This document shows, in pieces, positions 31,909 through 52,126 of a stretch of 64,000 nucleotides of DNA. The notes below the pieces were generated by a model. It was given only the letters and a program-made list of their open reading frames with translations. It was not told the DNA's origin and did not search any database. The stretch is from Oscillospiraceae bacterium. GTDB lineage: Bacteria > Bacillota > Clostridia > Oscillospirales > Oscillospiraceae. Numbering within the stretch: the stretch's first letter is position 1; every line of letters starts with the position of its first letter. Location: contig JAFSJE010000008.1 in assembly GCA_017439425.1 (NCBI GenBank), positions 1,069 through 65,068 of the forward strand. Reading direction: 5' to 3'. The position numbers and the translations under genes were made by a program.

Positions 31909-31918
31909 TTAAACAGCA

Positions 31919-31955
31919 CAAGGGCGGGTCGCCGTGACCTGCCCTTGTTCTTTAT
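31919..31955 (+). terminator. intrinsic terminator after the GH32 gene
   Basis: CAAGGGCGGGTC/GACCTGCCCTTG forms a 12-bp stem (one G-U) with loop GCCGT, followed by TTCTTTAT. Confidence 0.75.
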
Positions 31956-31962
31956 ATTACCT

Positions 31963-32166
31963 CCGCAAAGCACGGTGAAGCATGTAGGAGCAGGCACCGA
32001 AAGTTATTTCCGCAGTAAGCGGCTAAGCGAATTCGGCGCTTCGCGTATCAGACAAAGGACACCGCGCAAAACGATGCGCCAAGTCTTAGTGCCACCGCCA
32101 AGAGCTTTTATCTCTCTCTTGGTTCCGTTCTCTCTCTTTTTCTCGAAAAAGAGAGAGAACGAACAG
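31963..32166 (-). repeat. copy A of a roughly 210-nt structured intergenic repeat (reverse orientation relative to copy B)
   Basis: The reverse complement aligns by eye with 51853-52068. The 5' third is near-identical (TTCTCTCTCTTT..AAAGAGAGAGAACGGAACCAAGAGAGAGATAA) and the overall match is roughly three quarters. Confidence 0.8.
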
Positions 32167-32191
32167 AAACGGGCGGGGTATTTCCCCGCCC
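32160..32191 (-). terminator. GC-rich stem-loop after the MATE gene
   Basis: GGGCGGGG/CCCCGCCC perfect 8-bp stem with a 5-nt loop, followed on the minus strand by GTTTCTGTT. Confidence 0.6.
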
Positions 32192-32199
32192 AAATTTCG

Positions 32200-35533: not shown

Positions 35534-35562
35534 TATTATGCGCGGAATATATTTTTTTATGT
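35534..35562 (-). promoter_or_regulatory. forespore sigma-G/F-like promoter candidate upstream of spoVAC
   Basis: On the minus strand: ACATA (35562-35558), 17-nt spacer, CATAATA (35540-35534). Compared with the remembered sigma-G consensus GHATR-17/18-CAHWHTA. Confidence 0.35.
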
Positions 35563-35621
35563 ACTGCGGTTAAGCTGATCTGCGGTTGGTCGACCACCGC
35601 ACAATAAATTAATGCGAATAT

Positions 35622-51800: not shown

Positions 51801-51829
51801 TTGACAAGTCTACAAAAATGCAGTAGTAT
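51801..51829 (+). promoter_or_regulatory. near-consensus promoter reading into repeat copy B and dusB
   Basis: TTGACA (51801-51806), 17-nt spacer, TAGTAT (51824-51829). Confidence 0.6.
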
Positions 51830-51852: not shown

Positions 51853-52068
51853 TTGTTCATTCTCTCTCTTTCTCGCTGAGAAAGAGAGAGAACGGAACCA
51901 AGAGAGAGATAAGAGGCTTTTGGCGGTGACCATCACACTGAGGTGCCTCATAATGCGCGGTGCTGTTGTCTAATACGCGAAGCGGCGAGCGGCGCTTGGC
52001 CGCTTACTGCATACTAAATCGTAATGCCTGCTTCTACGGCTTTCACCGCGCTTTGCGGCGGTATCGTG
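51853..52068 (+). repeat. copy B of the roughly 210-nt structured intergenic repeat
   Basis: Aligns with the reverse complement of 31963-32166. It contains a 13-bp CT/GA hairpin (51860-51892) and a long-range helix GCGCGGTG (51955-51962) / CACCGCGC (52044-52051). Confidence 0.8.
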
Positions 52069-52126
52069 CAGGGGCGGGTCTCCGTGCCCGTCCTCAAACC
52101 ACACTATATTATAATAAGGTATCATT

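Follow-up and report, generated by a model that had tools for sequence, protein, structure and literature searches.

A lineage-restricted mosaic intergenic repeat, probably acting as DNA, with a predicted intrastrand-triplex module in rumen Oscillospiraceae

Is a structured intergenic sequence that occurs twice, in inverted orientation, around the ribosomal operons of a rumen bacterium an RNA, a mobile element or a repeat acting at the level of DNA? The question is raised by a stretch of 64,000 nucleotides from an Oscillospiraceae bacterium (GCA_017439425.1, contig JAFSJE010000008.1; G000:C73:1069-65068), hereafter the window, which belongs to a genome of 2.3 Mb in 89 contigs. The initial annotation had described two inverted copies of roughly 210 nt in this window, and considered them either an unannotated structured RNA family or an element resembling miniature inverted-repeat transposable elements (MITEs) or repetitive extragenic palindromes (REPs). 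Following up this proposal, we found that a repeat behaving in the REP/MITE manner could be retained, whereas a conserved structured RNA family could not. The repeat is real, mosaic and restricted to one lineage, and it carries a predicted intrastrand-triplex module that appears to be maintained by selection. It is neither a conserved RNA family nor the driver of an inversion of the ribosomal region.

The two copies were recovered by BLAST with 78% identity (E=3.6e-37) and align over their whole length of about 205 nt, as the initial annotation had seen by eye. Throughout, the strand on which the core comes first and the CT/GA hairpin after is called forward, which corresponds to the + strand for copy A (31964-32164, between a GH32 and a MatE gene) and to the - strand for copy B (51855-52057, between the dusB promoter/start and the S10-operon promoter); each copy scores 217 bits against the covariance model of the family. 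Column identity between copy A and the reverse complement of copy B amounts to 83% including flanks, and the hairpin end is nearly identical in both. The similarity extends beyond the low-complexity CT/GA tract, as the core aligns in all copies too, and the element is non-coding as supposed, with not a single small open reading frame (ORF), such as a type I toxin would have, conserved between copies. A unit consists of a core of about 140 nt, of which the first 100 nt or so are closed by an 8-bp helix, and of a three-tract module of about 60 nt that presents, in this order on one strand, a pyrimidine tract, GGTTCCG, a pyrimidine arm, a loop and a purine arm.

The compensatory changes suspected from the two copies are statistically supported in a structure alignment of 37 distinct copies from three genomes (A2). 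Here, 99.4% of cells are paired over the long-range helix, an AAGCG/CGCTT hairpin and the CT/GA hairpin taken together, compared to 40-61% with the partners slid, and RNAalifold gives the same helices. Changes on both sides were observed in six pairs; the long-range helix, which comprises eight pairs, accounts for four of these (CG/UA, GC/AU, UA/CG). This helix is real in both copies of the window: in copy A, GCACGGTG (31970-31977, +) faces CACCGCGC (32060-32067, +) with one A.C mismatch, and in copy B, GCGCGGTG (52044-52051, -) faces CACCGCGC (51955-51962, -). The small AAGCG-loop-CGCTT hairpin of the core (32025-32041, +, in copy A) keeps 98.9% of its pairs with zero double changes, and the single position at which the CT/GA stem differs between the two copies is indeed compensated (T-A in copy A, C-G in copy B; A2 columns 180/189). 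The core alone folds only slightly better than shuffled sequences (z of -1.2 to -2.3), and a search for extra core helices gave weak candidates without covariation, which were rejected. It had further been argued that a G-U pair fixes the reading direction to that of copy B. This argument does not generalise: the 37 copies contain 6 forward wobble cells in the long helix and 2 on the other strand, and although a G.U pair at the hairpin base also favours the forward strand in 28/37 copies, these wobbles trace to few events and constitute weak evidence for a strand.

It is the end module that carries our interpretation. This module reads 5'-TCTT(A)TCTCTCTCTT-GGTTCCG-TTCTCTCTCTTTCT-loop-AGAAAGAGAGAGAA-3', and its first tract mirrors the second and, read 5' to 3', matches the purine arm at 14/14 positions (T with A, C with G), the distal tract containing a single bulged base that is A, G or C depending on the copy. 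Three tracts of 14-15 nt separated by loops of 7 and 4-5 nt are present in 37/37 copies. In copy A, the distal pyrimidine tract TTTT(A)TCTCTCTCTT (32106-32120, +), which would provide the third (Hoogsteen) strand and mirrors the pyrimidine arm, precedes the hairpin at 32122-32164 (+; 15-bp stem of 32127-32141 with 32146-32160, loop CTCG, outer GTTC/GAAC); in copy B, the corresponding third-strand tract TCTT(A)TCTCTCTCTT lies at 51900-51914 (-) and the hairpin at 51855-51898 (-; stem of 51893-51879 with 51873-51859, outer GTTC/GAAC). Both variable stem positions change together with the distal tract (CG26/UA10/UG1 and CG29/UA7/UG1); the score observed for the triplex register was reached by no shuffle, and slid registers are devoid of double changes. 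The initial annotation had offered a second tract near the hairpin as an alternative antiparallel partner. Such Watson-Crick pairing of the distal tract with the purine arm leaves 7 C.A mismatches and 8 wobbles uncompensated and was rejected, whereas the parallel register of a triple helix covaries. A single strand is thus predicted to be able to fold as a hairpin whose major groove accommodates a third strand.

Since variants could be linked within their own family, an independent family was sought. The covariance model matched the hairpin module in G047, another species of the genus (E=2.6e-6), which harbors at least 40 copies of a 106-nt unit dispersed over many contigs (L139:1501-1606, loci L140-L168). 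This unit is composed of a GC hairpin, a G5-6 hairpin with the loop AAATCGAAAT, a distal tract, GTTAC and a hairpin; it lacks the core, and CCCCGTCCGCCCTTCGGGCGGACACC usually comes next. The unit and the left module of the extended copies described below are homologous, and the same AAATCGAAAT loop recurs in the 81-nt module of these copies. Five variants of the purine arm occur (AAAAGGGAGAAAG, AAAGGGAGAAAG, AAAGAGGGGAAAG, AAAAGAGGAGAAAG and AAAGAGAGAAAG), accompanied, in the same order, by the distal tracts TTTTCCCTCTTT, TTTCCCTCTTT, TTTCTCCCCTTT, TTTTCTCCTCTTT and TTTCTCTCTTT. In all five, the parallel match is perfect over 11-13 nt, compared to 5-6 nt for the antiparallel match in the three asymmetric variants, which make up 23/30 copies parsed. 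The triplex register is 98% consistent with double changes at three positions and scores 0.613 vs 0.338 in shuffles (0/500 reach it), while the antiparallel register, scoring below the shuffle mean, was rejected; the G047 hairpin itself is supported by 6 double-change pairs. Several coordinated three-tract changes separate the G047 variants, for which linkage alone is insufficient, arguing that the mirror symmetry is maintained. With the three tracts co-changing so as to keep each base triple in two separate families of one genus, the sequences suggest that selection has acted on the three-stranded fold, or on something reading it.

In another genus (G089, L124:1480-1560), a hairpin TTTTCTCTCCTTTTTCT/AGAAAAAGGAGAGAAAA is preceded by GTTCATTCTCTCTCC; this upstream tract resembles the arm copied directly and not in mirror image.

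The covariation fits two forms equally, a pyrimidine motif on the forward strand (T.A-T, C+.G-C) and a purine motif on the reverse strand (A.A-T, G.G-C). C+.G-C triplets are unfavourable at neutral pH, at which G.G-C and A.A-T triplets of the purine motif form with Mg2+. The module contains five to six C+.G-C triplets in the present family and runs of CCC or CCCC in G047, and we consider the purine motif likelier under neutral conditions. In the classification used by Hoyne/Maher and Holder et al., the pyrimidine motif is class IV and the purine motif class II (PMC4666352), so that the module belongs to class IV on its forward strand and to class II on the complement. Purine-motif triplexes do not form in RNA, pyrimidine-motif ones can (PMC4666352).

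The copy count confirmed that the repeat is multi-copy. At least 16 copies are present in the genome (and as many in two sister species), at least 13 of them full and the others partial. BLAST, a hidden Markov model and the covariance model recovered 12 intact copies; one further copy contains a 110-nt nested insertion, one is split by an insertion sequence (IS), one is internally deleted, and several end modules are solitary. Borders are sharp, falling between ..CGCAA and AGCGCGGTG on the 5' side and between GAGAGAATGAAC and A on the 3' side. Five copies are extended: ahead of the core and the hairpin module, they bear a further hairpin module in inverted orientation and an 81-nt module that contains two G5/C5 hairpins and resembles a double terminator, spanning about 365 bp in total with terminal inverted repeats (TIRs) of about 58 bp. 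The other 11/16 copies, including A and B, have a single end module only.

Partial copies at two contig ends were also considered as IS ends, an option that was rejected: they represent one copy (L020:1520-1756 and L015:1500-1753) split by an IS with its own TIRs and a duplication of about 4 bp. This IS has the inverted ends GGGWGCGGAYG..TTGGAC, duplicates AAGG and encodes a transposase starting MYSYEDRIRAIQLYEKYGKR. The split copy links the end of contig C69 to that of C73, and contig C10 carries this IS end on either side. Two copies of the element (L011:1613-1722, i.e., C73:71336-71445, and C69:45092-45200) contain nested members of a second repeat family, about 110 nt long (GGGGTCCCCAAAAATG...GATATGGAGC), of which at least three more partial copies lie on C32, C7 and C83.

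How widely is the repeat distributed? An exact-pattern scan for the core over 185,579 species genomes gave matches in two other records only, the metagenome-assembled genomes RGIG5036 (roe deer rumen) and RGIG1539 (goat abomasum), with 12-14 full copies each. Among the 38 species of the genus, full copies were found in these two and in the present one only. A search of 150 genomes, two of them from the same genus, with the covariance model built from the 37 copies yielded zero full-length matches in the 148 genomes of 133 other genera of the family, and no members were found in JGI metagenome contigs, IMG/VR, plasmids or phages. Within the three species, the flanks in the sister genomes match those of the copies studied here at 81-97% identity, and every site with a sister locus covering both flanks holds the element or a remnant, one sister being uncovered at 7/14 sites. 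As orthologous sites are occupied, the family predates the split of the three species; the copies were in place in their common ancestor and have been inherited vertically. Two sites are occupied in RGIG1539 only. One of them corresponds to positions 35543-35620 of the window, where RGIG1539 has a full copy and the present genome only a GC hairpin, GCGGTGGTCGACCAACCGC.

At their sites, the copies flip, lose internal sequence and acquire nested insertions. The element lies in the opposite orientation in one or both sister species at 7/14 of the sites that hold a copy in this genome. Copy B, for example, is flipped in RGIG5036 and belongs to a different subtype, with a 15-nt remnant of the left end module kept, and between thrS and UPF0210, the three genomes have orthologous outer hairpin arms around an interior that has been inverted and, in part, deleted. 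Between prmA and a glmU-like gene, RGIG5036 and the present genome have the same 110-nt nested insertion in the core, which RGIG1539 lacks, and the whole composite with its flanking GC hairpins is inverted between conserved flanks; the shared insertion in the flipped composite demonstrates inversion in situ and not re-insertion. Of the element at site A, RGIG5036 has kept no more than 16 nt from the 5' end and an inverted end fragment of 21 nt; beside this remnant and directly after the GH32 stop codon, an insert of about 150 nt resembling a MITE, with TIRs TACTAACCCCTRATYAAAAS, was noticed (L084:2180-2520). The subtype at a site sometimes differs from that at the same site in a sister species. 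Length differences above 25 nt were observed in 8/16 pairwise comparisons of spacers bearing the element, compared to at most 11/46 for control spacers of the same loci, a rough control in which several spacers hold other small repeats. On the larger scale, the two copies had been suggested to mediate inversion of the intervening 20 kb including the ribosomal operons. Neither of the two sister genomes shows such an inversion, and order, spacing and flanks are unchanged in both.

The flips would also be expected of programmed invertible switches (invertons), in which a site-specific recombinase flips the segment between inverted modules or GC hairpins and thereby alters the expression of neighbouring genes. 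Inverted repeats of about 58 bp in the extended copies and seven sites flipped between species, with one flip proven in place, are compatible with this option. However, the second inverted module is missing in most copies, no internal promoter was found, the enclosed terminator-like hairpins are bidirectional, and the neighbours are housekeeping genes (thrS, gyrA, typA, dusB). Moreover, the flips are fixed differences between species, and no recombinase gene lies beside those copies for which flanking ORFs were listed, a systematic search not having been made. We therefore consider an inverton rather improbable. In the case of a DNA repeat, the flips would arise by recombination between inverted hairpin modules or between palindromic GC hairpins at the ends, and a different subtype at an orthologous site would reflect replacement by another copy.

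The genomic context bears on the alternative of a transcribed element. Spacers holding the element are convergent, divergent and tandem, and the element occurs in either orientation. Its neighbours are lepA, typA, thrS, the gyrB/gyrA and gyrA/rnhA spacers, the parA promoter region, prmA, pheS, the spacer between dusB and the S10 operon and that between GH32 and MatE. Copy A is flanked by the terminators of two convergent genes, that of GH32 (31918-31948, +) on its 5' side and that of MatE (32170-32192, -) on its 3' side, both outside the repeat. Copy B lies downstream of a promoter-like TTGACA-17-TAGTAT (51801-51829, +), also upstream of dusB and conserved in three species, in which the dusB leader holds the element in either orientation. 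The bracketing by GC-rich hairpins that had been reported for both copies has a different meaning at each of them: those beside copy A are the terminators of GH32 and MatE, while one beside copy B (GGACGGGCACGGAGACCCGCCCC, 52071-52093, -) is a separate REP-like module missing at this site in both sister species, implying that such hairpins come and go independently. REP-like hairpins of the type GGGCGGG-N-CCCGCCC (e.g., window 52071-52093 and 32171-32191) number 26 in the genome and often adjoin the repeat.

Could the element nevertheless be a small structured RNA family or a cis-acting RNA module? In this case, the forward strand would be transcribed, the core would fold around the 8-bp helix, and a triple helix of U.A-U and C+.G-C triplets at the 3' end would protect the transcript from 3' exonucleases, as a bacterial counterpart of MALAT1/PAN. 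The long-range helix with its compensatory changes, the wobbles lying mostly on one strand, the exact end of the element at the purine arm and its GAAC, the conserved promoter upstream of copy B and the ability of pyrimidine-motif triplexes to form in RNA (PMC4666352) speak for such an RNA. Against it, Rfam gave no match in the window at either the gathering or the E-value threshold (the best sub-threshold hits are hairpin look-alikes of at most 25 bits); no internal promoter-like site was found in the element, and at copy B the strand downstream of the dusB promoter is the reverse one. The core only marginally beats shuffles, and the distribution covers three species only. DNA is favoured over RNA because the element is oriented at random relative to genes and can be reversed at a given site from one sister species to another, because it brings no promoter of its own, because copy A is enclosed by terminators, and because many of the triplets would be C+.G-C, with the unfavourable pH dependence mentioned above. 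A structured RNA is consequently unlikely in our view. The narrower idea that the elements are transcribed and that their 3' triple helix caps the RNA, which would place an equivalent of the MALAT1/PAN element for nuclear expression (ENE) in a bacterial repeat family, draws on the fact that the three-tract covariation equally fits a pyrimidine motif in the forward RNA, i.e., the strand with most wobbles; we regard it as very improbable.

A third option is a classical MITE, that is, an internally deleted derivative of a TIR transposon still moved by a transposase encoded elsewhere. The extended form with TIRs ending TGTTC...GAACA, the multi-copy and intergenic nature, the two sites occupied in one sister species only and the repeat-rich genome, with small repeats and an IS inserted into copies, fit this description. 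However, the element matches no known mobile element, and searches for a partner were negative. The Y1 transposase (PF01797) has one match in this genome, beside TnpB (IS605), is broken in RGIG5036 and absent from RGIG1539; TnpB was found in this genome and in neither sister genome, and the element shows no similarity to TnpB/IS605 loci. IS110 was found in none of the three carrier genomes, and the DUF559 nuclease is present here and absent from both sister genomes and G047. (Two CTCCCTTT-loop-AAAGGGAG hairpins, which belong to another pyrimidine/purine family, lie upstream of the single, Vsr-like DUF559 gene of this genome [L175:1355-1475, C4].) No longer or autonomous element with the same ends exists in the three genomes, all end-module matches lying in short elements, and no target-site duplication is visible at any element junction inspected. 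In addition, nearly all sites are common by descent, and one terminal repeat is missing in 11/16 copies. Taken together, a MITE in the strict sense appears quite unlikely.

The position of the copies on the chromosome hints at yet another role. dnaA-dnaN-recF-gyrB-gyrA are encoded on C69, and with C69 and C73 joined through the IS, 11/16 copies are found between about -27 and +57 kb relative to dnaA, so that the copies gather near dnaA/gyrBA/parA and the ribosomal operons; in RGIG1539, a single 120-kb contig carries 11-13 of its copies. Such clustering, within about 84 kb around dnaA-gyrBA-parA, would suit centromere-like sites near the origin, of the parS or ram type, to which a chromosome-organising protein binds. 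Yet, 205 nt far exceeds any known binding site, 35 other species of the genus, which also must segregate their origins, lack the element, the copies of the related G047 module are scattered across numerous contigs, and clustering is equally expected from local spread by recombination. Binding sites of this kind are, in our estimation, extremely unlikely. A replication-strand bias of the element orientation around dnaA was not detected.

Among known systems, the closest likeness is to the intrastrand-triplex repeats BoxC/PIT/TMECO described in E. coli and further Proteobacteria (Hoyne and Maher 2000; Holder et al. 2015, PMC4666352), to which no function has been assigned and which are linked to local genome instability (PMC4666352). 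Like these, the present repeat has three consecutive purine/pyrimidine tracts on one strand that could fold as an intrastrand triplex, is multi-copy and intergenic, is unrelated to the orientation or function of its neighbours and has no promoter or terminator role; in both cases, units are either single or arranged as inverted pairs, the loci show unusual rearrangement among close relatives, and no partner enzyme is known. The TMECO consensus CCCTCNCCC-N3-6-GGGNGAGGG-N3-GGGNGAGGG is unmatched by the (CT)n/(GA)n-rich tracts found here, whereas the grammar of the tracts is matched, indicating the same kind of repeat in a different sequence family. Further differences are the CT/GA-rich module with 14 triplets instead of CCCTCNCCC/GGGNGAGGG with 9, its junction to a core of about 140 nt that contains a covarying long-range helix of its own, the Firmicute host (rumen Oscillospiraceae) and the clustering of copies at the replication origin. 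We found no paper reporting covariation of an intrastrand triplex in the searchable literature; the present study documents such triple covariation.

REP/REPIN elements with their REP-associated tyrosine transposases (RAYTs; Bertels and Rainey 2011, PMC3116915) share with our repeat short palindromic intergenic units, often as inverted doublets, long vertical inheritance, a narrow lineage and hairpin pairs kept by compensatory change. They differ in that no RAYT occurs here, Y1 being absent from one carrier genome and broken in another, and in that the units described in this study are much longer, mosaic, equipped with a third-strand tract and present in about 16 copies per genome and not in hundreds. 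Established MITEs such as Correia, RUP and BOX resemble the repeat in size (200-365 bp), non-coding and mosaic nature, nested insertions and the TIRs of the extended form, and are unlike it in that the latter shows no target-site duplication, no parent IS and almost no insertion polymorphism among the three species.

Overall, we consider the element to be probably a non-coding mosaic repeat of the REP, bacterial interspersed mosaic element (BIME) or BoxC kind that acts at the level of DNA, and not an RNA gene. Several observations weigh against this assignment. Zero mobilising enzyme was found, as Y1, TnpB, IS110 and DUF559 fail to co-occur with the element; the lack of a visible target-site duplication is joined by only two possible insertion polymorphisms among the three species. 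The excess of wobbles on the forward strand hints at a strand-specific single-stranded form, possibly RNA, and the long-range helix would be less expected in a DNA repeat than in a folded RNA. With respect to the triplex, each of the two triple covariations within the family may be a single event on a linked block of about 60 nt, and Holder et al. (2015) observed a stable triplex in vitro and zero footprint in vivo (PMC4666352). Finally, geometry suggests that a linker of one nucleotide prevents the full triplex from forming together with the outer 4 bp of the hairpin. The outer GTTC/GAAC pairs also covary (CTTC/GAAG and TTAC/GTAA in other variants), and, given the short linker, the extended hairpin and the full triplex may represent alternative states.

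For a DNA repeat of this kind, selection would keep the fold of a single strand, and two options could explain why. A structure-specific enzyme would need the fold to copy or flip the element, or, alternatively, the fold itself would act on replication, supercoiling or recombination.

For genome annotation, the elements of about 205 nt should be masked as repeats and called neither small RNAs, leaders nor terminators. For the question whether intrastrand triplexes form in living bacteria, a 60-nt module with natural triple-compensatory variants provides a concrete and testable model. In rumen Oscillospiraceae, the predicted fold is tied to inversions in place, deletions and sequence replacement at fixed sites beside essential origin-proximal genes.

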